Assembly: GCA_044432805.1 (NCBI GenBank)
Contig: JAWXUI010000005.1
Span: forward strand, 1 to 53,995
Direction: 5' to 3'
DNA: 53,995 nucleotides
Source of the DNA: Mycoplasmatota bacterium
Lineage (GTDB): Bacteria > Bacillota_I > Bacilli_A > RF39 > UBA660
Shown here: positions 10,151 to 36,937 of the stretch, piece by piece
Position numbering within the stretch: the stretch's first letter is position 1
Layout: every line of letters begins with the position of its first letter
Notes under the pieces: model-generated
The model's input: the letters and a program-made list of their open reading frames with translations, nothing else
The model's database searches: none
What the model was told of the DNA's origin: nothing
Translations under genes and position numbers: made by a program

Positions 10151-11869
10151 ATGAATATAATTAAAAAAAATATAATTTACTTTGGAATAGTTTTAATTTC
10201 TTTTTTTACATTTAATTATAGTGTATTAGCAAATAGCATTTATGATATTGAAATGGATATTTATATTGATGAAAATGGAGATGCTTTTGTTACAGAAACA
10301 TGGAATACTTATTTAACAACTGGTACAGAAGGATATAGAGCGTTTAGTGATTTAAAAGATTCTAATATAACTAATTTCATAGTTACGGATGATAATAATT
10401 TTACCTATGAATTAGTGTCTTATTGGAACACTTCTAATTCATTTGAAGAAAAGTCATATAAAAATGGATATAACTATATTAGTAATGGCGTTGAATTATG
10501 TTGGGGAATTTCAAATTATGGTTCTAATACATATATTTTAGAATATGAAATATCAAATATAGTAACAAATTATACTGATTATCAAGGAATATATTTTAAT
10601 TTTTTAAATATTTCTCAAAATGTTGATAATGCTAAAATAGTTATACAATCTTATTTTGATCTTTCTTCTGCAAATTCACAAATATGGGCTTTTGGATATG
10701 AAGGAAATATATTATTTGAAGAAAATACAGTTATACTTTCTACAAATAATGGATTAATGTCAAGTGATTATATGGTAGGATTATTAAAGTTTGAAGATAA
10801 TTATTTTAATTCTACTAGTGATTCAACTCAAAGCTTTGATGAAGTATATGAGGAAGCAACATCTCCATCCGTTGAAGATCCAATGACTGTTATGCGCATG
10901 ATTATGTTTGTGATTTTCATATTTTTATCATTCATACCTTATTATGTATTATATTTAATATTCTCTAAATCATTTAAAAAAGGTGGATCATTATCTTTAT
11001 TATCAAAATTAGACTTTTCTCCTAAAGGAAATTGTTTACCAAAAAACAATATAAATTATTGGCGAGAGGTTCCAATGTATGAAGACATTGAATGCCTTTA
11101 CTGGATTGCTAATAAATATAATATTTCTACATATACTCAATTATCATCAAACATTATCGGTGTTTATTTATTAAAATTAGTTTTAGATAAAAAAATAATT
11201 ATTGAAAAAGAATCTACAACATTCTTTTCAAAAAATAAATTTAAAATTTATTTAAAAGCAAAATATACAGAAAAAAATGATTCGGCAAATAGTTTATTAT
11301 TAATTTTAAATAATGTTTTAGGAAATGATAATTATATTTCATCAAAAAAATTAAAAAAATGGTGTAAAAGAAACAGTTCACAAATTATGAATTGGAATCA
11401 AAAAATACTATTAAATGCTCAATTAAAATTAGAACAAAAAAATATGATTACTACTCATACTATCGAGAAAGTAAAACTATTACATATTACGCAAAAAGTT
11501 AGCAAAGTAAGCGTGGATGTATATGATGAAGCATTGAAATTATTAGGGTTAAAGAAATTTTTAGATGAAATTAGTTTAATAAAAGATAAATCATATATTG
11601 AAGTTCATATGTGGGAAAAATATTTGATTGTAGCACAGTTACTTGGTGTTGCTGATAAAGTTGAAAAAGAATTTTCTTCTTTATACCCTAACTATTTTGA
11701 AAATAGTGGAATACAAGAGTCAGTTAGAAGTGTTAGTTATGTAAGTGATTTTACATATCATAGCTATCACGTTAGCCAATCATCTTCTAGTTCTTCTGGG
11801 AGTGGAGGTTCATCTAGTAGAAGCGGTGGAGGTTCTTCACGAGGTTCTTCTGGCGGTGGATTTAGATAA
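10151..11869 (+). CDS. DUF2207-family membrane protein, copy 1
   Basis: Signal peptide, 'DIYIDENGDAFVTETW' N-domain, TM helix, 'GLKKFL...WEKYLIVAQLLGVADKV' and Ser/Gly tail ending GGGFR. Confidence 0.88.
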   Translation: MNIIKKNIIYFGIVLISFFTFNYSVLANSIYDIEMDIYIDENGDAFVTETWNTYLTTGTEGYRAFSDLKDSNITNFIVTDDNNFTYELVSYWNTSNSFEEKSYKNGYNYISNGVELCWGISNYGSNTYILEYEISNIVTNYTDYQGIYFNFLNISQNVDNAKIVIQSYFDLSSANSQIWAFGYEGNILFEENTVILSTNNGLMSSDYMVGLLKFEDNYFNSTSDSTQSFDEVYEEATSPSVEDPMTVMRMIMFVIFIFLSFIPYYVLYLIFSKSFKKGGSLSLLSKLDFSPKGNCLPKNNINYWREVPMYEDIECLYWIANKYNISTYTQLSSNIIGVYLLKLVLDKKIIIEKESTTFFSKNKFKIYLKAKYTEKNDSANSLLLILNNVLGNDNYISSKKLKKWCKRNSSQIMNWNQKILLNAQLKLEQKNMITTHTIEKVKLLHITQKVSKVSVDVYDEALKLLGLKKFLDEISLIKDKSYIEVHMWEKYLIVAQLLGVADKVEKEFSSLYPNYFENSGIQESVRSVSYVSDFTYHSYHVSQSSSSSSGSGGSSSRSGGGSSRGSSGGGFR

Positions 11870-11897
11870 AAAAATTATTTGTAGGATTGGGGTATTT

Positions 11898-13652
11898 ATG
11901 AACATAATTAAAAAAAATATAATTTACTTTGGATTAATTTTAATTTCTTTTTTTACATTTAATGATAATGTATTAGCTAATAGCATTTATGATATTGAAA
12001 TGAATATTTATATTGATGAATTTGGAGATGCATATATTACAGAAACATGGAATACTTATTTAACTTCTGGAAATGAAGGATATAGGTCTTTTAGTGACTT
12101 AGGTGATTCACAAGTAATTGATTTTATAGTTACAGATGGTAATGGTACTACTTATACTTTTGAATCATATTGGGATCACAATATTACTTTTAATACTAAA
12201 GCATATAAAAATGGATATAACTATACAGATACTGGTATTGAATTGTGTTGGGGAATTTCTAATTATGGCAATAATACTTATATTCTAGAATATAAAATAT
12301 CAAATTTAATTACAAATTATACTGATTATCAAGGAATATATTTTAATTTTTTAAACATTTCTCAAAATATTGATAATGTTAATATTGTAATTACATCTTA
12401 TTTTGACTTGAATTCTTCTAACACACAAATATGGGGATTTGGATATGAAGGAGATATTTTATTTGAAAATAATACTGTTACTCTTTCAACTACTTCTGGA
12501 TTAGAAGAAGAAGATTATATGGTTGGATTATTAAAATTTGAAGATGATTATTTTAACACTACTAGTTCGTCAAATAAAAGTTTTGATGAAATATATGATG
12601 AAACATATGACGAATCAACAACAACTTTTTTAGAAATAATTTTAGAACCAGAATTATTAACTAAAGCATTTACTATAATAATGGGTGGTTTTTGTGTATA
12701 CCTAATGATTTCATTAATCTTTATAGAAATAAGAAAAAGTAGTTTTCAAAAAACAAAAATTAAAACTAGATTAGATTTTTCTACTAAAGGAAATATTTTA
12801 CCTAAAAATACTATCAATTATTATAGAGAGATACCGATGGAAGAAGATATAGAATGCCTATATTGGATTGCTAACAAATATTTTATTTCTACATCTAACG
12901 AATTAAGATCAAACATTATGGGAGTTTATTTACTTAAATTAATTTTAAATAAAAAAATAACAATAGAAAATAACAGTTCAAAAAAATTATTTTCAAACAA
13001 AGAAGAATTTACAATATATTTTAAATCAAAAAATACTGATAAAAAAGATGTTGAAAATAATCTGTTATCGTTGTTAATTAGCGCGTCTGGATACAATGAA
13101 TTTACAACGTCAACTTCCCTGAAGTTGTGGTGTGAAGATAATTATGATCTACTAGAGGAATGGTATCAAAGCGTACTATATAGTGGACAACAAAAGTTAG
13201 AACAAAAGAAAATGATTACAATATATACAAAAGAAAGTAAAAGTATTTTTAGAACAATTAAAATAATATGTAAAGTATCGTCTCAATTATATGACGAAGC
13301 TTTAAAATTAGCTGGATTAAAGAAATTTTTAAGTGAAATAAGTTTGATAAACGATAAGTCATATATTGATGTTCATTTGTGGGAAAAATATTTAATAATT
13401 GCTCAGTTACTTGGTGTTGCAGATAAAGTAGAAAAAGAATTTTCTTCTATATACCCAAATTATTTCGAAAATCAAAGTATAGACAATTCAATTAGAAATG
13501 TTGAAACTGTAAGTAAATTTGCACATAAACCACTTTATTCAAAAACAACATCTAAATCTTCTTCATATAAAATTTCTAGTGGTTCTGGAGGATCATCTAG
13601 TAGGAGTGGTGGAAGTTCTTCACGAGGTTCATCTGGAGGCGGATTTAGATAA
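11898..13652 (+). CDS. DUF2207-family membrane protein, copy 2 (tandem paralog)
   Basis: Colinear with copy 1 from MNIIKKNIIYFG. The true start is 11898 rather than 11745, judged by the duplicated leader and RBS. Confidence 0.88.
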   Translation: MNIIKKNIIYFGLILISFFTFNDNVLANSIYDIEMNIYIDEFGDAYITETWNTYLTSGNEGYRSFSDLGDSQVIDFIVTDGNGTTYTFESYWDHNITFNTKAYKNGYNYTDTGIELCWGISNYGNNTYILEYKISNLITNYTDYQGIYFNFLNISQNIDNVNIVITSYFDLNSSNTQIWGFGYEGDILFENNTVTLSTTSGLEEEDYMVGLLKFEDDYFNTTSSSNKSFDEIYDETYDESTTTFLEIILEPELLTKAFTIIMGGFCVYLMISLIFIEIRKSSFQKTKIKTRLDFSTKGNILPKNTINYYREIPMEEDIECLYWIANKYFISTSNELRSNIMGVYLLKLILNKKITIENNSSKKLFSNKEEFTIYFKSKNTDKKDVENNLLSLLISASGYNEFTTSTSLKLWCEDNYDLLEEWYQSVLYSGQQKLEQKKMITIYTKESKSIFRTIKIICKVSSQLYDEALKLAGLKKFLSEISLINDKSYIDVHLWEKYLIIAQLLGVADKVEKEFSSIYPNYFENQSIDNSIRNVETVSKFAHKPLYSKTTSKSSSYKISSGSGGSSSRSGGSSSRGSSGGGFR

Positions 13653-17196: not shown

Positions 17197-18066
17197 TTAT
17201 TCTCCTTTATTATGTGGATGTAAGCTATAGCTATCCACTAGATGTTCTTTTGAAACATGTGTATATATTTGTGTTGTTGAAATAAAACTATGTCCTAACA
17301 TCTCTTGTATTGTTCTTAAATCAGCACCATAATCTAATAGATGTGTCGCAAATGAATGCCTTAATACGTGTGGTGATATTTCTTTTAAGTTTTTTTCTTT
17401 TGTTAACTTTTTTAATATTTTAAAAAATCCTTGTCTGCTTATTTGTTTGCCATGGTTATTTAAAAATAAATAATCACACATATATCCTTTTAACATATAT
17501 TGACGAATGTTTAAATAGTCACTTATTGCATCTATAGCGTATTCTCCAATTGGAATTATTCTAAATTTATCACCTTTACCAATTACTTTAACACTTTTAT
17601 TTTCCATATCAACGTCATTAGGCATTAAATTAATTAGTTCTGATACTCTAAGACCAGATGCATACATTAACTCGAGCATTGCCTTGTTTCTAATGTTAAA
17701 ATGGCTATTACTTTCAATATCTAATAATATAGCTACATCTTCTATTGATAGAATATCTGGAATGTGTTTTTTTGTTTTTGCCAATTCTAAGCTAGATGTA
17801 ATATTATTTGATATAATCCCTTCAATTAATAAATATTTATAAAAACTTTTTATAATACTTATAAAGTGATTAATGCTTATAGATTGATTTGTTTTTTTTA
17901 AATGATAAATATATTGCATTAAATCATCTTGTGTTATAAAATTAATATCTTTTTTTATATATTTATCAAATTGAACAAGAGATAATTTATAAGAACTTAT
18001 AGTATGAATACTGTATCCTTTATCAATTTGTAAATAATCAAGAAAATCAGCTATATAGTCCGACAT
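17197..18066 (-). CDS. xerD: Site-specific tyrosine recombinase, XerD-like
   Basis: YASGLRVSEL, GKGDK, SPHVLRHSFATH, MLGH, TTQIYTHV; xerD-deoB order as in Bacillus. Confidence 0.9.
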   Translation of the reverse strand: MSDYIADFLDYLQIDKGYSIHTISSYKLSLVQFDKYIKKDINFITQDDLMQYIYHLKKTNQSISINHFISIIKSFYKYLLIEGIISNNITSSLELAKTKKHIPDILSIEDVAILLDIESNSHFNIRNKAMLELMYASGLRVSELINLMPNDVDMENKSVKVIGKGDKFRIIPIGEYAIDAISDYLNIRQYMLKGYMCDYLFLNNHGKQISRQGFFKILKKLTKEKNLKEISPHVLRHSFATHLLDYGADLRTIQEMLGHSFISTTQIYTHVSKEHLVDSYSLHPHNKGE

Positions 18067-25367: not shown

Positions 25368-27182
25368 TTAAACTTCTTCAAATTGTGAATTATATAGATT
25401 TGCATAAAAACCATTTTTCTTAAGTAAGTCTTTATGATTACCAGTTTCTACAATATCACCATTATTCATAACTAATATTAAATCAGCATTTTTAATAGTT
25501 GATAGTCTATGAGCAATTATAAAACTAGTTCTATTTTCCATTAATTTATCCATTCCTTGTTGTATTAATATTTCTGTTCTTGTATCAACACTAGATGTAG
25601 CTTCATCCAAAATTAATATTTTTGGATCAGCTAATATTACTCTTGCAATAGTTAGTAATTGTTTTTGACCTAATGAAACATTATCTGATTCTTCATTTAT
25701 AATCATATCATAACCTTCTGGTAATGTTTTAATAAAATGGTGTACACATGCTGCTTTTGATGCATTTTTAACTTCTTCATCATTTGCATCTAATTTACCA
25801 TATTTAATATTATTTAAAACAGTATCTGAATACAACCAAGCGTCTTGTAAAACCATTCCAAATAAACTTCTTAACTCTTCTCTTTTAAATTTAGTTATAT
25901 CTTTTCCATCTATTAAAATAGAACCTCTATTTAAATCATAGAAACGCATTAATAACTTTACAATTGTTGTTTTTCCAGCTCCAGTTGGACCTACAATAGC
26001 TATTTTTTGTCCTTTTTTAACTGTAGCAGAAAAGTCATTGATTATTATTTTATTTTCGTTATAACCAAATACAACATCTTTAAACTCAACATCACCTTTT
26101 ATATTTTTTATTGAAAGTGCATCTTTTATATTTGGTGTTTCTTCTTCTTCATCTAAAAATTCAAATATACGTTCTGCTGCAGCCATAGTTGATTGTATCA
26201 TTGTGATTATTTGAGCAATTTGTGAGATTGATGAATTTAAACTTCTACTATATTGTGAGAACGTAATAATACTTCCCACTTCTAATTTATCTTTTATTAT
26301 TAATAAACTACCTAATAAGCAAATAACAACATAACCTAAATTACCAATAAATTGCATTAAAGGTTGCATGGCAGTTGAAATAACTTGGCTTTTCCAACCA
26401 CTTTTATATAATTTATTATTTACTTCATTAAATTGATCTAGTGATTTTTCTTCACCATTAAATACTTTTACAATATTATGTCCACCATATATTTCTTCAA
26501 CGATACCATTAATTTCACCTAAATTTTGTTGTTGTTGTAAGAAATATTTTTGAGATTTTTTAACTATTAAACCCATTCCAAATATTGATATTGGAAGTAT
26601 TAATAAAGTTACTAAAGACATTGTTATATCAATTGAAAACATCATTATTAATATACCAATAATAGTCGCAACAGATGTGATTGATGATGATACAGCTTGC
26701 GATAAATTTTGGCTTAATGTATCAACATCATTTGTTATTTTTGATAATATTTCACCATGATTATATTTATCAAAGAAACTCATTGGGACTTTATTTAATT
26801 TAATTGAAATATTTTTTCTGAATTTATATGCTATATCATTAGTTATTGTATTTGATATTATGTTTACTATAAATGTTGAAATAGCACTTATTATATAAAT
26901 TCCTATTAATAATAATAATGTACTTTGAATAGAATCAAAATCTATTCCACCAGTATTTGTTATTTTACCAATTAAACCATTGTATAACTCAGTTACTACA
27001 TCTCCAGCCATACTTGGCCCTACTATAGAAAAAATAGTTGAAATAGTAGTAAAGAACAAAACAATAATAAACCATTTTTTATAATTTTTAAAATGACTAA
27101 TTAGAGTTTTAAATGTTCCTTTAAAATCTTTGGCAGATTCTATTTTTCCATTTGCCATTGGACCACCTGGACCTCTATTCAT
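25368..27182 (-). CDS. ABC exporter TMD-NBD subunit (heterodimer, consensus site)
   Basis: GPTGAGKT, SLGQKQ, ILDEATS, AHRL. Confidence 0.96.
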   Translation of the reverse strand: MNRGPGGPMANGKIESAKDFKGTFKTLISHFKNYKKWFIIVLFFTTISTIFSIVGPSMAGDVVTELYNGLIGKITNTGGIDFDSIQSTLLLLIGIYIISAISTFIVNIISNTITNDIAYKFRKNISIKLNKVPMSFFDKYNHGEILSKITNDVDTLSQNLSQAVSSSITSVATIIGILIMMFSIDITMSLVTLLILPISIFGMGLIVKKSQKYFLQQQQNLGEINGIVEEIYGGHNIVKVFNGEEKSLDQFNEVNNKLYKSGWKSQVISTAMQPLMQFIGNLGYVVICLLGSLLIIKDKLEVGSIITFSQYSRSLNSSISQIAQIITMIQSTMAAAERIFEFLDEEEETPNIKDALSIKNIKGDVEFKDVVFGYNENKIIINDFSATVKKGQKIAIVGPTGAGKTTIVKLLMRFYDLNRGSILIDGKDITKFKREELRSLFGMVLQDAWLYSDTVLNNIKYGKLDANDEEVKNASKAACVHHFIKTLPEGYDMIINEESDNVSLGQKQLLTIARVILADPKILILDEATSSVDTRTEILIQQGMDKLMENRTSFIIAHRLSTIKNADLILVMNNGDIVETGNHKDLLKKNGFYANLYNSQFEEV

Positions 27183-29382
27183 TGTCTAATTCCTCCTGAC
27201 TTAATTGTGATGATGCAATTTCTTTATACACTTTGCATGTTTTTAATAATTCTTTATGGGTTCCAATACCTTCAATTATTCCGTCATTTAATACGACTAT
27301 TTGATCGGCATTCATAATAGTTGAAACTCTTTGTGCAACAATTAGCATTATTTTATCTTTTGTAATTTTTCCTAATTCTTTTCTTAGGGTTGCATCAGTT
27401 TTAAAATCTAATGCTGAAAATGAATCATCAAAAATATAAATGTCTGGGTCGATAGCGATTGCTCTTGCTATTGATAATCTTTGTCTTTGACCACCAGATA
27501 CATTTGTACCACCTTGTGCTATATCAAAACTATATTGGTTTTCTAATTTTGAAACAAAATTATCTGCTTGCGCTATTTTTGAAGCTTCAACAACTGATTT
27601 ATTATTTAATGTATCATCACCATATTTTATATTTGATAAAACACTTCCTGAAAATAAAATTCCTTTTTGTGGTACATATCCAATTTTTTCTCTTAATTGT
27701 TTCATTTCTAAATCTAAAATGTTAATATCATTTATTTTAATACTACCTTTTGTTACATCGTAAAATCTTGGTATTAAATTTATTAATGTTGATTTACCAG
27801 AACCAGTAGATCCTATAAACGCTGTTGTCATTCCAGCAGATGTTTTAAAGTTTATATTTGTTATAACATCTTCTTGTGCTTCAGGATATCTAAATGATAC
27901 ATTATCAAATTCTAAAGTTTTTATTTTTGATTTTAATTTTTTTGTTTTTTCTTTATTTTTAATACTACTATCTGTGTTAATAACTTCTAATATTCTTTTT
28001 GCAGATACAGAAGCTCTTGGTAAAATAATAGAAATAATTGCTATCATTAAAAATGACATTATAATTTGCATAGCATATTGAATATATGCCATCATATCTC
28101 CAACTTGTATAGTTCCAGCATCAACACCTACTGAACCATACCAAAGAATTGCCACAGTAGTTAAATTCATTATTAATAACATTATTGGCATCATGCAAGA
28201 CATTGTTCTATTAATAAATAAATTTGTTTTTGTTAAATTTTTATTAGCTTCTTCAAAACGTTGTTCTTCATGTTTTTCATTACTAAATGCACGAATTACT
28301 GGGATTCCAGTTAATATTTCTCTAGATACTAAATTTAATTTATCAATTAATTTTTGTAATTTACTAAACTTAGGCATTACGAAAGTAAATAATAAAGTTA
28401 TTACAAACATTAAAGTACCAACTGCACCGATAATTATAAATAACATAGAACTATCAGATTGTGTACTTTTTATTATTCCTCCAATTGCTATAATTGGTGC
28501 ATAAAATACAACTCTAAACATCATTATGATAACTTGTTGAACTTGTTGAATATCATTTGTTGTTCTTGTAATCAATGATGCTGTTCCAAATTTTTTAACT
28601 TCTTTTTCTGAAAATTCTAATACATTTTTAAATACTTTTTCTCTTAGTGTTTTAGCTAGTTTAGCAGCCATTCTTGCTCCAACAAATAGTATCAACAATG
28701 CATCAGCCATTATCAATAAAGAAATACAAACCATTTTAGCTCCTGCTATTAAAATGTATTGTGTTTGTATTGAATCAATATCAATACCGATTTTTTCATA
28801 TTCTACTTGTACAGTTGAAATAGCAAGTTGTTCTAAAATTGATTCTGGATATTCATTTAACATCTCGGCTAAAGGAGTTACAATTTCACTTAACTGTTCT
28901 TCTGTTAAAATAGATAAAATTGTAAATATATTTTCACTGTTTACTTCCATATTTAAAGAAGTTGATAATGCTTCAAATATTCCATCTGTCATTTCACCTT
29001 CTGTTGCAAGTAAATAAGAAAGTATTCCAGTTTCATATATTACATCTCTTGCTTCTTCACTATAGTTTTCGTTTAATAGATAAATATCTTCTTCTAATAA
29101 TAAAGGATATTCTTCTAAATAGTCACCTAGAGAAGTTATAACGGTATAACTATCTAATAATAATTCATCTTTATCAGTAAGTAATAGCATTTTATCTAAT
29201 GTAGTATCTGATAATGTTTCATATACCCCATCTTGTATTCCTTTTTGTTGAATACCTACATTTACAATATCAGAAGTATATTCTGGTAGTGATAAATCTA
29301 AATAAGCTTGTGCGACTAAAAGAATTATAATTAATATAATCTTTGGAAAGTCATTTTTTAAATATTTTAATAATTTTAACAT
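27175..29382 (-). CDS. ABC exporter TMD-NBD subunit (heterodimer, degenerate site) with large extracellular insert
   Basis: GSTGSGKS, SGGQRQ, degenerate IFDDS and AQR; acidic insertion after TM1. Confidence 0.95.
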   Translation of the reverse strand: MLKLLKYLKNDFPKIILIIILLVAQAYLDLSLPEYTSDIVNVGIQQKGIQDGVYETLSDTTLDKMLLLTDKDELLLDSYTVITSLGDYLEEYPLLLEEDIYLLNENYSEEARDVIYETGILSYLLATEGEMTDGIFEALSTSLNMEVNSENIFTILSILTEEQLSEIVTPLAEMLNEYPESILEQLAISTVQVEYEKIGIDIDSIQTQYILIAGAKMVCISLLIMADALLILFVGARMAAKLAKTLREKVFKNVLEFSEKEVKKFGTASLITRTTNDIQQVQQVIIMMFRVVFYAPIIAIGGIIKSTQSDSSMLFIIIGAVGTLMFVITLLFTFVMPKFSKLQKLIDKLNLVSREILTGIPVIRAFSNEKHEEQRFEEANKNLTKTNLFINRTMSCMMPIMLLIMNLTTVAILWYGSVGVDAGTIQVGDMMAYIQYAMQIIMSFLMIAIISIILPRASVSAKRILEVINTDSSIKNKEKTKKLKSKIKTLEFDNVSFRYPEAQEDVITNINFKTSAGMTTAFIGSTGSGKSTLINLIPRFYDVTKGSIKINDINILDLEMKQLREKIGYVPQKGILFSGSVLSNIKYGDDTLNNKSVVEASKIAQADNFVSKLENQYSFDIAQGGTNVSGGQRQRLSIARAIAIDPDIYIFDDSFSALDFKTDATLRKELGKITKDKIMLIVAQRVSTIMNADQIVVLNDGIIEGIGTHKELLKTCKVYKEIASSQLSQEELDNE

Positions 29383-29969
29383 GTATATATTCCTTTCATA
29401 ACTAAGTTTAATTTATTTATATATTTATTTCTAACTAGTTCATAATCTACGCCTTTTTCAAAAATAAGCACTAAATGATGAAAAGTTATTATATTTAATA
29501 TACTAACTAAATCTTTTAAATCTTTTTCTTTTAAATTCAATTTTTTCATATCAATCAAACCTAAAATTTGATGTCTTACTTCTAATTTTTCTTTTTTTAT
29601 ACTATCATTCATCATTTGACCATTAATGTTTTTGATACCATTTTTTACAAATTCTTTATTTGGTGCATTAGATTGATAAATATAATCAAATATTTCTTTA
29701 TAAGTGATTAAAAGATCCCCTTTGTTTTTCTTTAATATAAAAATAAATTCCAAGGTTATCTTTTCTATTACATCTTTTAATAATTCCAAATATAATTCTT
29801 CAATATTATTAAAATATAAATAAAAAGTTCCACGTGGCATATTTATGTCTTTAATTATTCTATTTATACTTGCTTTTATAAGTTGATGTTCACTAAATTC
29901 TTTTATAGCGGCTTGTTTTATATTTTCTTGTTTTTCTATTGATAATTTATAAAATAACGGACTTGCCAT
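29376..29969 (-). CDS. TetR/AcrR family regulator
   Basis: ASINRIIKDINMPRGTFYLYF helix-turn-helix; heads the ABC operon. Confidence 0.92.
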   Translation of the reverse strand: MASPLFYKLSIEKQENIKQAAIKEFSEHQLIKASINRIIKDINMPRGTFYLYFNNIEELYLELLKDVIEKITLEFIFILKKNKGDLLITYKEIFDYIYQSNAPNKEFVKNGIKNINGQMMNDSIKKEKLEVRHQILGLIDMKKLNLKEKDLKDLVSILNIITFHHLVLIFEKGVDYELVRNKYINKLNLVMKGIYTC

Positions 29970-29995
29970 AAATATCCTCCTTAACCTTCTTATTC

Positions 29996-30024
29996 ATTAT
30001 ATTCAATTACTGACAAATTGTCAA
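29996..30024 (-). promoter_or_regulatory. Sigma-A promoter of the tetR-ABC operon with an overlapping operator
   Basis: Perfect TTGACA-N17-TATAAT; palindrome TGACA-AAT-TGTCA (30011-30023) covers the -35 box. Confidence 0.8.
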
Positions 30025-30047
30025 TAAAATAATAAAAAAAATATTAT

Positions 30048-30644
30048 TTAAATATTTTCTTCTTTACATTCCATTATTTTAACTTTCTTTTTTAATAAAT
30101 CAAGACCTTCTTTTTTTAATGATTGTGCCATTTTCTTATTACTTACGACTTCGTATTGATGTATATACATTTTGGCTAATATATCTGAGTATGCACGTAA
30201 TAAATTAACTTGCATAGCCTCTTTTAAAGCTAAACCATCTTCTTCTGCTATCGAATAAACACCATTTGAAATATCATTATATTCACTTAATAATGATGAT
30301 AAATATGGAACTTCTTGATTTATTGGAATAAAAGAATTATTTACCTGATTAAAAAACCAACTATCCGTATATTGTTGTAACGAATTAACGATAACCATTC
30401 TCAGTTCATAACCACTTAAATTTAGTGATTTAGCATCACTTTTAAATCCTCTTTTGTCTTTGTGATAACTATAAAAATATAGTGCTTTATAAATATAATC
30501 TTTTGCTTTTTTTTCACCATATTCTTCACCATAAAATCTAGCCATTGAAGGACTACAACTAAAGGCTCCTTTTTCATAATGAGAATCTATTATATCTAAA
30601 GTTTCAAATAAATCATCTTTTAATTGAATACTATTTTTTTCCAT
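30048..30644 (-). CDS. Orphan paralog family member 5 (most divergent)
   Basis: ELRMVIVNSLQQYTDS...VPYL...AYSDILA aligns by eye to the family core. Confidence 0.65.
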   Translation of the reverse strand: MEKNSIQLKDDLFETLDIIDSHYEKGAFSCSPSMARFYGEEYGEKKAKDYIYKALYFYSYHKDKRGFKSDAKSLNLSGYELRMVIVNSLQQYTDSWFFNQVNNSFIPINQEVPYLSSLLSEYNDISNGVYSIAEEDGLALKEAMQVNLLRAYSDILAKMYIHQYEVVSNKKMAQSLKKEGLDLLKKKVKIMECKEENI

Positions 30645-30660
30645 TTTTATTTCTCCTTAA

Positions 30661-31260
30661 TTATATATAATAAGCGGTTTTTCCTGTTATTTTTTCAGTT
30701 AATTTTTCATTATATGCAAGTTGTTTTCTTTTTGCATTTCTTTCTTTTTTCTCTAATTCTTTTACAAATCTACGTTTAAAACTAATTTTATAAGTACTAA
30801 TAATACTTGCAGGTTCTTTTAGTTCAATGTTGTTTTTTAATTGCCAAGCAGTTATTCTAGAATATATTTGAATTAATCGTGTAACATGGAAAAAAGCTTT
30901 TTCTTTTTCACAATTCGCAAATGCTTCCAATTCAATAATTAACTCTGGAAATTGATCTTTTATTCCTATGATTTCTTTTCCCTCTTTTACAAATCTAGAT
31001 TGTGATATTTTTGTAAGCGAAAAAATCAATGTTTGCATTATTTCAGGTGTTGTATAGGACTCTGAAAAAGTGCATTGTGGTGGAAAGTATCCAGGAAATT
31101 CATCTCCTGATACTATCCTTTCAAAAATCATATTTGAAATTGTGTCCTCCACTTCATAAACGTGAATATCTGTTATTGTTACAAGTTTAAAACGTAACCC
31201 ATCTTCAACGGCTTTTTCTAAATATATTTTTGCAGCTTCTAATGTTTTTTCATCTTTCAT
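30661..31260 (-). CDS. Orphan paralog family member 4
   Basis: SYTTPEIMQTLIFSLTKISQS...FPELIIELEAFANC...IYSRI. Confidence 0.75.
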   Translation of the reverse strand: MKDEKTLEAAKIYLEKAVEDGLRFKLVTITDIHVYEVEDTISNMIFERIVSGDEFPGYFPPQCTFSESYTTPEIMQTLIFSLTKISQSRFVKEGKEIIGIKDQFPELIIELEAFANCEKEKAFFHVTRLIQIYSRITAWQLKNNIELKEPASIISTYKISFKRRFVKELEKKERNAKRKQLAYNEKLTEKITGKTAYYI

Positions 31261-31273
31261 ATTTTTTCTCCTT

Positions 31274-31867
31274 TTATTCTATTACTATTTTTTGTGTCAA
31301 TTTTTCAGTATAAGCTAGTTGTTTTCTTTTAACTTGATTTTCTTTTCTTTGCATTTCTTCAATAAAACGACGTTTTAAACTAACTTTATATGTATCAGTA
31401 ATGCTTGTTGGTTCAGAAAATTTTAAACATTCTGACATTTCCCAAGCAAATATTTGACAATATTTTTTAAGTAAACCTATTGAAATAAATCCAGCGTCTT
31501 CACCTTTACAATTTGCAAACGCTTCTAGTTCAAGAATTAATCGAGGATATTTATCTTTTACTTCTTGAATCTCTCCATTTTCATCTACATAGCTAGACTG
31601 TGCATATTTTGTTAATGCAAAAATTACTGTTTGTAGTATTTCTGCTGAGGTATGTTTTACGATAAATGATTCTTGATGTAAATTTATTGAACCATAAAAA
31701 TCATATGAGTTATTTCTAATTACATTTTCAAACAATAAAGTTAAAATAAATTGTTCTAACTTTAATTGATTATATGCAGTACTATGTCTTGTTACATCAT
31801 CATGTGCTTTTTTAATAAATAATTTTAACTCTTGTCTTGCTTCTTTTAATTTTTTTTCATCCTTCAT
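31274..31867 (-). CDS. Orphan paralog family member 3
   Basis: KHTSAEILQTVIFALTKYAQS...YPRLILELEAFANC...KYCQI. Confidence 0.75.
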   Translation of the reverse strand: MKDEKKLKEARQELKLFIKKAHDDVTRHSTAYNQLKLEQFILTLLFENVIRNNSYDFYGSINLHQESFIVKHTSAEILQTVIFALTKYAQSSYVDENGEIQEVKDKYPRLILELEAFANCKGEDAGFISIGLLKKYCQIFAWEMSECLKFSEPTSITDTYKVSLKRRFIEEMQRKENQVKRKQLAYTEKLTQKIVIE

Positions 31868-31872
31868 TTTTA

Positions 31873-32499
31873 TTACCCCTTTAATTTAATAACTTGCGCT
31901 ATTTTTCTTTCTGCATCAATATATTTTTTTTGTTTTAGCTTATATGTTTCTTTTGCTTCTTCTATTTGTTCTTCTGTAGCTGTATCTAGAGTAATAGATG
32001 CCATCATTTTTTCTAAAATAATACTTTCTGGATCATTTACAATTCTTAAATTGTTAAAATGCACTGAACCTACTATTTGTGAATAAATAGCTATTGCTTT
32101 ATCTAAAACACATTTTGTTTGTTCTTTAGTACTATAAGAAAATTCATACACACAACTAGTTAAACTTGATGAAAAAAGAACTAACGGAAAGAGTGGCTTA
32201 GATAATTCTGATTCATCACTGTCTTTATTAATTGCATAAGCTTTTGAATACGAAAGCAATGAATACATAATTATTTCTAAAAGTTCTCGTTTTGTATATT
32301 TTGAAACTGATGTAGAAGATAAATTTTCATCATAACCTTCATTAATTAATTTTTTTAATGAAAGAAATATTCCCATAATATAATTATATTCACTATCAAT
32401 CGGGAAATCTTCATAAGGAATTTTTATATTTTCAGCTACACTTGAAACACATTCCTCTAATTCTATTTTAGCCTTACTTAATTTAATTGGATCATTCAT
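31873..32499 (-). CDS. Orphan paralog family member 2
   Basis: KYTKRELLEIIMYSLLSYSKA...FPL...IYSQI. Confidence 0.7.
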   Translation of the reverse strand: MNDPIKLSKAKIELEECVSSVAENIKIPYEDFPIDSEYNYIMGIFLSLKKLINEGYDENLSSTSVSKYTKRELLEIIMYSLLSYSKAYAINKDSDESELSKPLFPLVLFSSSLTSCVYEFSYSTKEQTKCVLDKAIAIYSQIVGSVHFNNLRIVNDPESIILEKMMASITLDTATEEQIEEAKETYKLKQKKYIDAERKIAQVIKLKG

Positions 32500-33037
32500 A
32501 AATCTCTTCTCCTTTTTTTAATGTTTTTTCTAATTTTTTTAATTCTGTTTTAATTTTCTTTTTTGTTATTAATTTTTTGCTTTTTTCTTTTGTAATATTA
32601 AAATTATTTCTTTTTATAATATGCAATTTATTATAATTTAAATATACACTTATTTTAACATATAAAGTAATACAATATAATATACTAAAGATTATTTCTT
32701 TACCATTACTATTTAAAAAATATTCAATTGTATCTTCTAATTCAGGGAAAATTTCATTTAAATATTTACCATCTTCTCTTATTAATGATTGGTTATATAT
32801 AGCAAGTGAGTGAATTATAATTTGTAATGTTTCAGATGGCTTATATTTTTTTAGTAATTTAACTAATTCTCCATCAGATTCATTTTGAAAAATGTATTTA
32901 TTTAAACTTTTCATAATTTGATTAGTTAAATCTTCAATATTAATTTTTTTGTTATCTTTTATTTGTTTATGAATATAATTTTTTATAATTAGTTCAAAGT
33001 CAGAAATTCCTGATTCTACTTTCAAATCATTTTTCAT
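32492..33037 (-). CDS. Orphan paralog family member 1
   Basis: KYKPSETLQIIIHSLAIYNQS...FPEL...YFLNS...LYVKI. Confidence 0.7.
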   Translation of the reverse strand: MKNDLKVESGISDFELIIKNYIHKQIKDNKKINIEDLTNQIMKSLNKYIFQNESDGELVKLLKKYKPSETLQIIIHSLAIYNQSLIREDGKYLNEIFPELEDTIEYFLNSNGKEIIFSILYCITLYVKISVYLNYNKLHIIKRNNFNITKEKSKKLITKKKIKTELKKLEKTLKKGEEIYE

Positions 33038-33062
33038 AAAAGTCTCCCTTTTTTGTGAGGTT

Positions 33063-33091
33063 ATAGTACTACAAAAGGCTTAGTTTGTCAA
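33063..33091 (-). promoter_or_regulatory. Sigma-A promoter of the five-paralog operon
   Basis: TTGACA-N17-TACTAT, followed by an AAGGGAG RBS. Confidence 0.7.
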
Positions 33092-33159
33092 ATTTAAGCA
33101 TTAAAAAAGACTTATTTAAATAAATCCTTTATTACCTTTTTCATTGTGCGAATTAAAAT

Positions 33160-34089
33160 TTACTTTGTTTTATTAGACTTTTCTTCTTTTTTAAAATAGT
33201 TCAATACATCAATTGTTTCAAATCCTGATTTATTATAAAAGTTAACTCTCCAATCATACGAATTAACGTAACAACTTGTAATTCCAAGGTCCTTACATCT
33301 ATTTATAATTGTGTGCATCATAGCTTTTCCTAACCCAGTTTTTTGATATTTGTTTCTAGTTGATACTGGTTCTATAAAAGCAGTCTTTAGTTCTAAATTA
33401 ACATAACAAAATGCATAAGAACATAATTCATCAGTGCTTCTAATAATAACTTCAAAACTGTCTTTAAAATAATTTGATTTTTTTCTACTATTATAGCTTT
33501 CTAAATTAGGTATATAATCTATTTCTTCAGCATCCGGATGGAATCCTAAATGGCAGACAATAGATTTTGCAGTGTCATCTAAAATTTCTTCTCCGTATGC
33601 AATATAAAATCCATCGGGTAATTCTACATTATAACTTCCTAATTGTGGATTTACAAAATTATCAAAATCATGTTCATTTTGCAATATATATGAATTATTA
33701 CTTAAAAAATTATTTTGGTTTGAAATTGACTCATGAGTTATTATTAATATGTCATCTGGATTTTCAAAATCAGGAGCAATTTTTTCTTCTAAAAATTTTA
33801 CCATATCGTCAAATAAATATTCATATCCTTTTGATGTGTAAGGATACATAGCTTCTCCATCAGGCAATAACACTGCGACTACATTACCATTTTCTTCCCA
33901 ATAATGAAGATAATTTTGTGAAGGGATTTTTCCATTTTCTTTTTCTAACCATACATCAATTCTAAATACCACATCTTCAAATCTTTCTGGTAACCAACAA
34001 TTTAAATTTTGATTTTTTTGATATTCTTGCATTAAAAACATTTTTATTTTATCAAAATCAATACCTTTTTTATACTTAACTATTTCCAT
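33160..34089 (-). CDS. GNAT family N-acetyltransferase
   Basis: IEPVSTRNKYQKTGLGKAM (motif A) and FYNKSGF. Start set at the ATG after GAGGTG. Confidence 0.9.
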   Translation of the reverse strand: MEIVKYKKGIDFDKIKMFLMQEYQKNQNLNCWLPERFEDVVFRIDVWLEKENGKIPSQNYLHYWEENGNVVAVLLPDGEAMYPYTSKGYEYLFDDMVKFLEEKIAPDFENPDDILIITHESISNQNNFLSNNSYILQNEHDFDNFVNPQLGSYNVELPDGFYIAYGEEILDDTAKSIVCHLGFHPDAEEIDYIPNLESYNSRKKSNYFKDSFEVIIRSTDELCSYAFCYVNLELKTAFIEPVSTRNKYQKTGLGKAMMHTIINRCKDLGITSCYVNSYDWRVNFYNKSGFETIDVLNYFKKEEKSNKTK

Positions 34090-34187
34090 TATTTTCACCT
34101 CTAATACAATTTTAACATAATTTTAATTATTATCAAAAAAAAAGAAAATTTTATCTTTTCTTGTTAATACTAATAAAGGTGATTTAA

Positions 34188-35111
34188 ATGAAAATAAATT
34201 TAGGATATGCTTGTGTATCAAAAACTTTAAACGTGACTTCCTCTACTCCATTTACTTATACAGAATTTTTAAAAACAAACGATTTTAATAAATTAGATAG
34301 AATTATTAATTCTAATTTAGAAGATTTAGAAAAAATTTTATATTACAATATAAAAAATAATATTACATTTTTTAGACTTACTTCAAAGCTAATACCACTT
34401 GCTACAAAAAAAGATGTTGTATTTGACTATGTAAATAATTACAAAGAAGAATTTAACAAATTAAAACCATTAATTAAACAATTAAGAGTTGATGTACATC
34501 CAGATCAATTTACTGTTTTAAATAGTGTCTCGAGTGAAGTAGTGAAAAATTCAATTGATAATTTAGAATATCATTATAACATTTTAAATCTTTTAGGTAT
34601 TGAAAATAAAATAATTATTTTACACGTTGGATCAAGTACTTTTGGTAAAAAAAATAGTATAACAAGATTCATAAATAATTTTAATTTGTTACCAGACCAT
34701 TTAAAAAAAAGCATTGCTATTGAAAACGATGATAAGGTATTTAATATAAAAGATTGTTTATATATTGCAAATACATTAAATATCCCTTTTGTATTAGATT
34801 ATCATCATTACATATGTAATAACGATAAAGAAAATTTATATGAATATATGGAAAAAATTTTTAATACTTGGAAAATAAAACCTAAGATTCATTTTTCTTC
34901 TCCAAAAAGCAAATTAAAAAAAGAGTTTAGAAGCCATCATGATTATATAGACGTAAACTCTTTTATTAACTTTTTAGAAAATATTAAATTTCTAAATAAA
35001 GATTTTGATATTATGTTAGAAGTAAAAGCAAAAGATGAAGCATTATTTAAATTAATAAGGCAATTAAAATATAATAATTATACTATAAAAGGTACGACTA
35101 TATATTTATAG
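34188..35111 (+). CDS. uvsE: UV DNA damage endonuclease
   Basis: LGYAC, HPDQFTVLNS, IENDDK, DYHH, PKIHFSSP, HHDY, MLEVKAKD. Confidence 0.96.
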   Translation: MKINLGYACVSKTLNVTSSTPFTYTEFLKTNDFNKLDRIINSNLEDLEKILYYNIKNNITFFRLTSKLIPLATKKDVVFDYVNNYKEEFNKLKPLIKQLRVDVHPDQFTVLNSVSSEVVKNSIDNLEYHYNILNLLGIENKIIILHVGSSTFGKKNSITRFINNFNLLPDHLKKSIAIENDDKVFNIKDCLYIANTLNIPFVLDYHHYICNNDKENLYEYMEKIFNTWKIKPKIHFSSPKSKLKKEFRSHHDYIDVNSFINFLENIKFLNKDFDIMLEVKAKDEALFKLIRQLKYNNYTIKGTTIYL

Positions 35112-35112
35112 T

Positions 35113-35649
35113 TTAAATGTATCTACTAATTAACTCTGTTTTATCAATTCGTTTTTGTTTTTGCTTACCTACTTCTTGTTGTATTAATACATTATATTTT
35201 GGATTAAGATTTGTTTTTATAGTTTGTGGGTATTCAACAACATTAATTTTTGCTGATATTTTACAAGCTAGTATATTAGAATATATAAATATAACTTGAG
35301 AAGCACAAAGTGATAAATCTTTTTTTTCGCAATTTAAAAATCTATCTACACATCCTTTTAGTCCAGGGAAAGCAGTTGTCATAGGAACTTCTACTTCACC
35401 ATCAACTAAAGTAGAATTACTATCTTTAGATAATGAATATATTAATATTTGTAATAATTCTGCTGGTGTATATTTATTTGTTAAACTATCTTTTTGTTTC
35501 TCAGAAATTGCTTTATATAATCTGTTTTTAACATAAAACTTTACCTCCAACAAAGTTGTTTGACTTTTTTTATTTTGTTTTAAAAAATCTTTTTCTAAAA
35601 TTTGTTCTAGTTCATTTAGTCCATTTAATAAGTCTATTTCATTTCTCAT
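35113..35649 (-). CDS. Orphan paralog family member 6 (solitary copy)
   Basis: KYTPAELLQILIYSLSKDSNS...FPGL...RFLNC...IYSNILA. Confidence 0.75.
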   Translation of the reverse strand: MRNEIDLLNGLNELEQILEKDFLKQNKKSQTTLLEVKFYVKNRLYKAISEKQKDSLTNKYTPAELLQILIYSLSKDSNSTLVDGEVEVPMTTAFPGLKGCVDRFLNCEKKDLSLCASQVIFIYSNILACKISAKINVVEYPQTIKTNLNPKYNVLIQQEVGKQKQKRIDKTELISRYI

Positions 35650-35791: not shown

Positions 35792-36712
35792 ATGGGTTTA
35801 ATCAAACATGGAATAGCTTTGATAATAGAAAAAGCACTAAAAAAGCACGGATATAATGTTACAAGAATTGGAAGTAAAGTTTTTACTATTCAAACAGGTA
35901 ATATAGATTTAAGCGCTACATTACAAGGAACTTATACATATGACGAAGTTATGGAATTTAATGACGAGATTGGATATTCATCTCGCTTAGGTCATTCTAA
36001 TGGAACACCTATAGCAATAATAGGGATTCCAAATGATAATTATGAAGTTGGTTCCTTTAAAGATGTATGGGAATACGGAAAAGCTTCACCAGAAAAAGAA
36101 TATCCTTTTACATTATACGATGAAGAAACTGCAAAACAAATTGGTAATTATACTGTAGGGTTTAATAGTTATTTTGAAAGAATAAAAAAAGATTTAAAAT
36201 TTGATAAATTAAATCAAGTATATGAACAAACAAAAAGCAACAAAATAAGACATCTAGCAATAGAAACACCATTTGTATTAGATGCAGAATATAAAATGAA
36301 TGGAACTTATTCATTTAAAGAAATTAAAAAAATGTTAGCGCAAGATAAATTTAGAATGACATCATTTGCATCATATGCATTAAAAGATGGTAAACCAATT
36401 GCTATAATTGGGGTTGGTTATAGAAAAGATGGCTCAATTTGTGGGTTTAGAGATGTATGGGAATATGGTAAAGATGAACCCGAAGTATCTACTTATGAAC
36501 CTATAAGCATAGAAGATGCACAACATATTACTAATTTTGAAGTATATGGATGTGATTGTACTACTGCTGATATCGATATAGTTGATATGGATGTAGAAAA
36601 ATACGACAGAAGATTTGATAAACGTTTTGATTATTATTCTGAAGGTGTTGATTATCGAATGAGTTATAAGAATCCAAAAAAAGATAAAGTTAAAACATTA
36701 GATACTCCATAA
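35792..36712 (+). CDS. Hypothetical protein with two internal ~90-aa repeats
   Basis: GTYxxxE...GxPIAIIG...FxDVWEYGKxxPE occurs twice; AGGAGG RBS. Confidence 0.75.
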   Translation: MGLIKHGIALIIEKALKKHGYNVTRIGSKVFTIQTGNIDLSATLQGTYTYDEVMEFNDEIGYSSRLGHSNGTPIAIIGIPNDNYEVGSFKDVWEYGKASPEKEYPFTLYDEETAKQIGNYTVGFNSYFERIKKDLKFDKLNQVYEQTKSNKIRHLAIETPFVLDAEYKMNGTYSFKEIKKMLAQDKFRMTSFASYALKDGKPIAIIGVGYRKDGSICGFRDVWEYGKDEPEVSTYEPISIEDAQHITNFEVYGCDCTTADIDIVDMDVEKYDRRFDKRFDYYSEGVDYRMSYKNPKKDKVKTLDTP

Positions 36713-36778: not shown

Positions 36779-36855
36779 TGGTAGCGACGAATGGATTCGA
36801 ACCATCGACCTAACGGGTATGAACCGTTTGCTCTAGCCAACTGAGCTACATCGCC
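36779..36855 (-). tRNA. tRNA-Met(CAT), elongator type
   Basis: GGCGATGTAGCTCAGTTGGCTAGAGCAAACGGTTCATACCCGTTAGGTCGATGGTTCGAATCCATTCGTCGCTACCA: 77-nt cloverleaf, CAT anticodon, paired G1-C72, encoded CCA. Confidence 0.95.
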
Positions 36856-36937
36856 ATTTATGAACAAAATAATTATAACATTTTAATTTATATTAAATCA
36901 AGTCTTTTTATAAAAAAAAACAAAGATTTAACTTTGT

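Follow-up and report, generated by a model that had tools for sequence, protein, structure and literature searches.

Gene content of the locus

The sequence analysed here is a stretch of 53,995 nucleotides (the window), corresponding to positions 1 to 53,995 of contig JAWXUI010000005.1 of the Mycoplasmatota bacterium assembly GCA_044432805.1. The genome to which it belongs has 1.11 Mb in 74 contigs, is 88.3% complete, and derives from a fish-gut bacterium. The window carries six open reading frames (ORFs) of 178 to 208 codons, named M1 to M6, of which M1 to M5 form an operon while M6 is encoded alone (Table 1). These ORFs are very probably real genes that are paralogous to each other and orphan; five are certain members of the family, and one (M5) is a probable member. 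All six were found on the minus strand, at exactly the coordinates given in an earlier annotation made from the DNA letters without database searches (the sequence-only reading). The G+C content of the window is about 24%, as part of an AT-rich chromosome, and its remainder consists of housekeeping genes on an ordinary chromosome.

Each of the six genes starts with an ATG codon and is preceded by a ribosome-binding site of the AGGAG or GGGAG type. Spacing between consecutive genes from M1 to M5 is -8, 5, 13 and 16 bp, the negative value being an overlap of the M1 stop codon with the start of M2. Because about 9.4% of random codons are stops at 24% G+C, the chance of a stop-free frame of 178 to 208 codons is 1e-9 to 2e-8 for each ORF. 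Coding-type G+C bias was seen in all frames, with a G+C fraction of 0.08-0.14 at the third codon position (GC3) versus 0.26-0.40 at the first (GC1).

The five operon genes had been placed under a single TTGACA-N17-TACTAT promoter. The site is present upstream of M1, as a consensus match and not as a demonstrated start site. Promoter-like sites are as frequent in the region (71) as in shuffled sequence (65.8 +/- 7.9), with no excess, and the site is therefore considered as a candidate promoter only. No intrinsic terminator was called in a scan of 29.0-36.9 kb.

Table 1. Coordinates of the M genes and of the features around them (window positions unless another contig is named)
Feature	Position	Strand	Description
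TetR-family regulator	29376..29969	-	first backbone gene downstream of the operon
M5	30048..30644	-	198 aa; last operon gene; probable, very diverged member
M4	30661..31260	-	199 aa; close paralog of M3; three recorded sequence variants
M3	31274..31867	-	197 aa; close paralog of M4
M2	31873..32499	-	208 aa; acidic, isoelectric point (pI) 5.07; most diverged of the five certain members
M1	32492..33037	-	181 aa; first operon gene; pI 9.25; TGA stop
Promoter-like TTGACA-N17-TACTAT	33063..33091 (33091..33063)	-	upstream of M1; consensus match only
GNAT acetyltransferase gene	33160..34098	-	312 aa; GNAT domain at residues 212-293; 122 bp upstream of M1
uvdE (UV endonuclease)	34188..35111	+	conserved backbone gene between the slots
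M6	35113..35649	-	178 aa; solitary copy; nearest member to all others; modelled structure
306-aa ORF	35792..36712	+	internal duplication; divergent from M6, in the same tRNA-side slot
tRNA-Met	36779..36855	-	3' side borders the slot with M6 and the 306-aa ORF
HD/HDIG-type phosphohydrolase gene	G001 (same-genus genome) contig C13, 8349-8972	+	occupies the uvdE-TetR slot in that genome

Paralogy within the family and status of M5

Pairwise comparison of the proteins (phmmer) places M6 at the hub of the family, with E values of 5e-5 to 5e-10 to M1, M2, M3 and M4, the match to M2 being at 5e-5. M3 and M4 are close, as the sequence-only reading had stated (43% identity, E 1e-47), and identity between pairs spans about 17-45%. 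A hidden Markov model (HMM) built from M1-M4 and M6 was compared with the 4178 six-frame ORFs of the genome and retrieved these five members only (E 1e-64 to 2e-80), from which it follows that the assembled genome holds no further copy. M1 to M4 and M6 are, as judged by sequence comparison, significant paralogs. In the family alignment, six columns are invariant (E, L, P, L, Y and I), and the core motifs described from the letters are visible, namely E..L.Q..I.SL, FP.L, F.NC and YS.I.

M5 gave no significant pairwise match to any other member, and the family first described as having six members is therefore stated as five certain members and one probable. Against the HMM of the other five, M5 obtained 7.9-8.1 bits (E 0.42, rank 9 among the 4178 six-frame ORFs), and it is the top-scoring non-member among the 368 ORFs of 150-260 aa; the same score was reached by 7 of 2000 shuffles of M5. 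Profile alignment with hhalign gave P 0.064 over 111 collinear core columns. In an AlphaFold model of M5 (mean predicted local distance difference test score, pLDDT, 72.9; core blocks 85-94), the order of helices and strands is the same as in the M6 model, in a prediction that used the family alignment and is hence not independent of it. M5 is probably a highly diverged member of the family.

Repeated duplication, with copies that were kept and diverged, had been proposed for these genes and is supported by the profile similarity found among five of the six. Among the 1001 genome ORFs of at least 100 aa, the M family ranks with the larger groups of paralogs, and of the 25 clusters listed it has the longest run of neighbouring copies. 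The conservation of the core across the copies would imply selection.

Protein architecture, fold and composition

An AlphaFold model of M6 was built from a five-sequence alignment and has a mean pLDDT of 77.4 and a predicted template modelling score (pTM) of 0.71; its core blocks reach pLDDT values close to 90 or higher. From the N-terminus, helices at residues 4-25 and 33-48 are followed by a core made of a helix (62-77), a beta-hairpin (80-89), a second helix (97-105) and a long helix (109-131), after which come a low-confidence linker and a low-confidence C-terminal helix (150-177). Each protein is soluble and mostly alpha-helical. A helical hairpin that varies between members forms the N-terminus, a conserved core of about 75 residues follows, and a poorly predicted, Lys/Glu-rich helix makes up the C-terminus. 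Pairs of members are on average 30% identical in the core, 24% in the tail and 19% in the N-terminal part.

Foldseek searches found no match at E 0.001 or better in the PDB or in BFVD. An exhaustive VIA-align comparison with 48,161 chains gave best Z values of 6.7 for the M6 model and 6.5 for the M5 model, which are background for helical models by the program's own yardstick, and none of at least 8. The chains matched are generic three-helix bundles and designed proteins, aligned in the core region only; in effect, the fold comparisons cover this region alone.

The last 40 residues contain 22% Lys, compared with 9% genome-wide. M2 and M5 are acidic, and the other four proteins are basic (pI 8.3-9.25). 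In agreement with the sequence-only reading, no signal peptide was found in any of the six members and no catalytic constellation is conserved among them, the invariant residues being mostly hydrophobic or structural. Strong hydrophobicity occurs only in the conserved core helix of M1 (1.97 in a 19-residue Kyte-Doolittle window; 0.6-1.4 in the others).

Searches for relatives

The five-member profile was compared with 1,835,955,588 representative proteins, and the only matches were the five queries themselves. Word-index searches with M6 and M5 returned only the query or a strain variant with 98% identity. At protein-family level, none of the six proteins reached the cut-off of any family in Pfam (matches considered up to an E value of 1), NCBIfam, PADLOC or PHROGs, and the family is unrecognisable to each of these libraries. 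M6 was not matched by tblastn in 50,697 phage or 72,556 plasmid records, nor in JGI metagenome contigs, and M3 was not matched in IMG/VR. A profile search against PDB sequences gave a best E value of 0.15, nothing significant. In the ESM Atlas, M6 and the 306-aa ORF had no usable feature match, and the structural matches had TM scores of at most 0.40 with poor Atlas models.

The description of the family as orphan is borne out by the profile, word-index and relatives' genome searches, and for five of the six members no confident mapping of the core to a characterised family was obtained. The M genes constitute a species-restricted family of five certain members and one probable member, whose novelty is established by exclusion only, at protein-family level.

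Several sub-threshold matches were inspected and rejected. The uncharacterised family DUF3837 (PF12939) matched residues 29-71 of M1 only (E 0.0056, 17.6 bits versus a gathering cut-off of 25 bits), in a region outside the conserved core, and the other five members scored nothing; in genomes of the class, DUF3837 was matched in 0 of 121, with the search's own control also found in 0. The HP0895-family type II antitoxin model (NF050800) matched M4 only, in its Lys-rich tail, with 20.7 bits versus a cut-off of 200. The type II restriction-enzyme model of PADLOC (REase_II) matched M1 only (17.5 bits over 41 residues), and the PHROGs matches of M5 were far below any threshold.

One candidate relative came from the six-frame search of related genomes, in which weak matches occurred in 1 of 40 relatives and 2 of 300 same-family genomes, all three being the same HsdM ortholog. 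On this basis the family could be a diverged HsdM fragment comprising the end of the N-terminal domain and the "YTP" helix at the start of the methylase domain. These three orthologs were the sole non-self profile matches in the 340 genomes (E 3.5e-4 to 1.5e-3 per genome), and hhalign against them gave a probability of 47% (P 2e-4, 51 columns) in an alignment that sets K-Y-T-P-x-E-L of the family opposite H-Y-T-P-R-E-V of HsdM. However, the match was chosen after the search, and with a diverse profile of 25 sequences the probability fell to 5.3% (P 0.0074). Moreover, the genome's own HsdM was not matched by the family HMM, the Pfam models HsdM_N and N6_Mtase match no member, and HsdM was absent from the PDB sequence search and from both fold searches. 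The resemblance is considered as a motif-level coincidence, and descent from HsdM, largely refuted by these comparisons, is very improbable.

Occurrence, RNA libraries and strain variation

One metagenome study of fish gut contains the stretch in four runs: two DNA runs, one of which may be the source, and two metatranscriptome libraries. Contigs from both metatranscriptome libraries cover the operon; these contigs give no expression level, transcript ends or strand, and the uncovered parts of M6 and of the GNAT gene in run X4 carry no meaning. A contig of 3165 nt from an RNA library spans 29492-32632 with 13 substitutions and no indels. These data are compatible with transcription and with a second strain of the same gene order; they are no proof of transcription or of an operon structure, since DNA can occur in such libraries and only contigs are available.

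In RNA run X3, one contig (depth 109) joins position 32671 to position 36905 through 21 foreign letters. This joint is probably a chimera or belongs to another organism, because its shorter side has only 22 letters. The RNA-contig joints listed have sides of 20-22 letters and probably come from other organisms.

Each member was seen on 9-10 contigs of the protein collection, with a single sequence for M1, M2, M3 and M6, three variants for M4 and two for M5. Counted from the strain differences listed, beyond which 11 more exist, the nonsynonymous fraction was 3/3 in M5, 1/3 in M4, 2/8 in the TetR gene and 5/11 in the GNAT gene; these counts are too few to serve as a test of selection.

That the ORFs are non-functional, i.e. 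chance frames or drifting pseudogenes, would agree with the lack of homologs anywhere and with the three nonsynonymous differences out of three in M5. This explanation is nevertheless exceedingly improbable in view of the low chance of each open frame, the codon-position G+C bias and the ribosome-binding sites in front of all six genes. The core is furthermore kept across copies that are 19-45% identical, which implies selection, the structure models of M6 and M5 are confident, and the genes are present in RNA-library contigs.

Genomic setting: two accessory slots around uvdE

The surroundings of the M genes were compared with a genome of the same genus (G001), in which the flanking genes have 65-73% protein identity. 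The backbone order is kept there (rubrerythrin, formate-tetrahydrofolate ligase (FTHFS), tRNA-Met, uvdE, TetR, ABC, ABC), and the operon, the GNAT gene, M6 and the 306-aa ORF are all missing from it. For this reason, the family is considered to lie in two accessory slots flanking uvdE. The interval between uvdE and the TetR gene contains the GNAT gene and the five-gene operon in the window, and a single HD-type phosphohydrolase gene in G001, which identifies it as a site of gene turnover. The interval between tRNA-Met and uvdE contains M6 and the divergent 306-aa ORF in the window, and no ORF of at least 70 aa in G001. The GNAT gene, the 306-aa ORF and the M family, operon and M6 alike, were not found in 40 relatives.

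The protein encoded by the 306-aa ORF is made of two similar halves, each with an "IAIIG ... [FR]DVWEYGK" motif, and the duplication is visible in the DNA as a repeat (36056-36094 and 36446-36484, 82% identity). No family of Pfam, NCBIfam or PADLOC includes it, and the only relatives are encoded in metagenome-assembled genomes (MAGs) of distant Clostridia from rabbit and mouse gut, with 31% identity to it and 75-83% conservation among themselves. The 306-aa ORF was tried as an obligate partner of the M family and rejected as such, because its Clostridia relatives have no M-like neighbour (no M-family ORF nearby in eight MAG loci; best HMM E value 0.1).

Such a setting could also be that of cargo from a mobile element or prophage which arrived next to tRNA-Met and uvdE and has since decayed. 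The genes could, for instance, be superinfection-exclusion or anti-defence genes, and would now be of little use to the host. M6 and the 306-aa ORF lie directly 3' of tRNA-Met, where the same-genus genome has nothing; the contents of both slots were not found in the 40 relatives; and the distribution of the 306-aa ORF relatives suggests horizontal movement. On the other hand, the slots (29-37 kb) contain no integrase, transposase or other gene of a mobile element, and the tyrosine recombinase nearest to them is at 17197-18066. No repeat of the tRNA-Met 3' end and no informative direct repeats were found at the slots, Rfam detects nothing there other than the tRNA, and the G+C content does not shift between the slots and the rest of the window. 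The cargo explanation is also opposed by the empty searches of phage and plasmid records with M6, of IMG/VR with M3, of PHROGs, and of BFVD for the fold, while the intactness of all six frames and their good ribosome-binding sites point to a maintained function. It is regarded as quite unlikely.

In the GNAT gene, no good ribosome-binding site precedes the listed GTG start, and an ATG located three codons downstream is preceded by GAGGTG; because of this, the latter is probably the true start. About 200 residues at the N-terminus of the protein, before the recognisable domain, have no assignment. Downstream of the operon, the TetR gene has its own perfect TTGACA-N17-TATAAT promoter (30024..29996, minus strand), whose -35 box lies within the palindrome TTGACAATTTGTCA (30010-30024). 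This palindrome is likely the TetR operator, controlling the TetR gene together with a two-gene ABC exporter operon (25368-29969).

Comparison with known systems and proposed function

As a tentative guess, the M proteins may be a set of binding proteins in the cytoplasm that have diversified and serve a protective role similar to immunity. The family was built up within accessory DNA, through serial tandem duplication on either side of uvdE, which is itself conserved. Its products may act by binding and not by catalysis: the conserved core would serve as a scaffold, and the diverged N-terminal third, with its hairpin, and perhaps the tail would give each paralog a specificity of its own. Each copy could then neutralise its own variant of a protein entering from outside, for example a phage factor or a polymorphic toxin.

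Among immunity proteins of type VII secretion systems (T7SS), EsaG is assigned to a DUF family in Pfam. The M proteins differ from the T7SS immunity families in this respect, as no member reaches any Pfam family cut-off. According to PMC9484751, strings of non-identical immunity paralogs are known for esaG and tsaI in Staphylococcus aureus and for tipC in streptococci, orphan sets of these genes exist in strains without the toxin, and the arrays lie in a variable genome region. The M operon is like these strings in being made of head-to-tail diverged paralogs with common core regions, here five adjacent genes with 17-45% identity and a conserved core. Unlike them, it has no relatives in other species and almost nil within-species variation, and no toxin gene, WXG100 or LXG was found in the 88.3%-complete genome. 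It also lacks the high-identity nucleotide blocks which would drive recombination among esaG and tipC copies: the best direct repeat between M genes is 129 nt at 76% (M3/M4), and the others are of at most 70 nt at 72-79%.

Arrays of orphan immunity genes also occur in gut bacteria, as stated in bioRxiv 10.1101/471110. There, the acquired interbacterial defence (AID) clusters of gut Bacteroidales are composed of homologs of known immunity genes, are carried on mobile elements and may have a recombinase. Like the AID clusters so described, the M operon groups small genes into an array within the accessory DNA of a gut bacterium, and no toxin gene lies next to it. It differs from that description in that its members are paralogs of one orphan family, without known immunity homologs, and in that no mobile-element gene or recombinase lies at the M-family slots. 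By analogy, the array would be most like the known immunity-paralog arrays without being one of them, the tandem arrangement of diverged paralogs being the only feature shared.

Several results weigh against a protective role. No toxin, secretion-system or phage gene lies near the operon in the window, and WXG100 (PF06013) and LXG (PF04740) each gave 0 matches in the 88.3%-complete genome, with positive controls. No immunity or defence family was matched at cut-off in Pfam, NCBIfam, PADLOC or PHROGs. The absence of the high-identity blocks seen in esaG and the near-invariance within the species, with M1, M2, M3 and M6 each having a single sequence on 9-10 contigs, point in the same direction. 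The absence of homologs among the 1,835,955,588 representative proteins weighs most, because toxin producers should carry cognate immunity genes. The proposal of an immunity, antitoxin or anti-phage array made in the sequence-only reading accordingly found no backing from a toxin gene, from WXG100 or LXG, from a PADLOC or Pfam immunity family, or from homologs elsewhere.

The paralogs could instead be subunits of one lineage-specific assembly or regulator, in which a coupled operon supplies related subunits in fixed proportion and basic, Lys-rich tails contact nucleic acid or another polyanion. The packing of the genes, with spacing of -8 to 16 bp, is that of translational coupling; most of the proteins (4/6) are basic, with tails enriched in Lys; the core scaffold is conserved; and near-invariance within the species is expected of structural parts. 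However, M6 stands by itself in another slot, the M2 and M5 proteins are acidic, and no DNA-binding or RNA-binding family was matched in Pfam. The whole set is also absent from the same-genus relative and is hence not a core function. An assembly of this kind is held to be unlikely.

Orphan families are common in uncultured lineages, and six copies are rarely kept without use in a reduced genome of about 1000 genes. The M genes represent about 0.6% of such a gene set, which makes the expansion striking; some 15 billion predicted proteins include no relative of theirs, and no known fold is recognisable in their products. A low probability is attached to the idea that the fold or family was born in, or diverged unrecognisably within, one small-genome fish-gut lineage of Bacilli, where it would form an undescribed protective or assembly system, with specificity located in the variable N-terminal helical hairpin. 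This would offer a compact case for studying the origin and duplication of new proteins. A protective role, if true, would add a new protein family to the bacterial immunity and defence repertoire, and would mean that even a minimal gut symbiont devotes genes to an array of this kind.

Other observations

Two adjacent paralogs encoding DUF2207 membrane proteins (572 and 635 aa) are located at 10151-13652 of the window (plus strand), and the listed GTG start of the second overlaps the first gene by about 125 bp. A dispersed paralog family of seven members, with ORFs of 117-133 aa, is distributed over seven contigs (e.g. C10:25408-25782 and C13:12246-12608). In several genomes from the same class, a conserved methylase contains 1-5 TGA codons in frame, as in mycoplasma-like lineages, for which reason TGA is presumably a sense codon there; the genome of the window uses TGA as a stop, as in M1.

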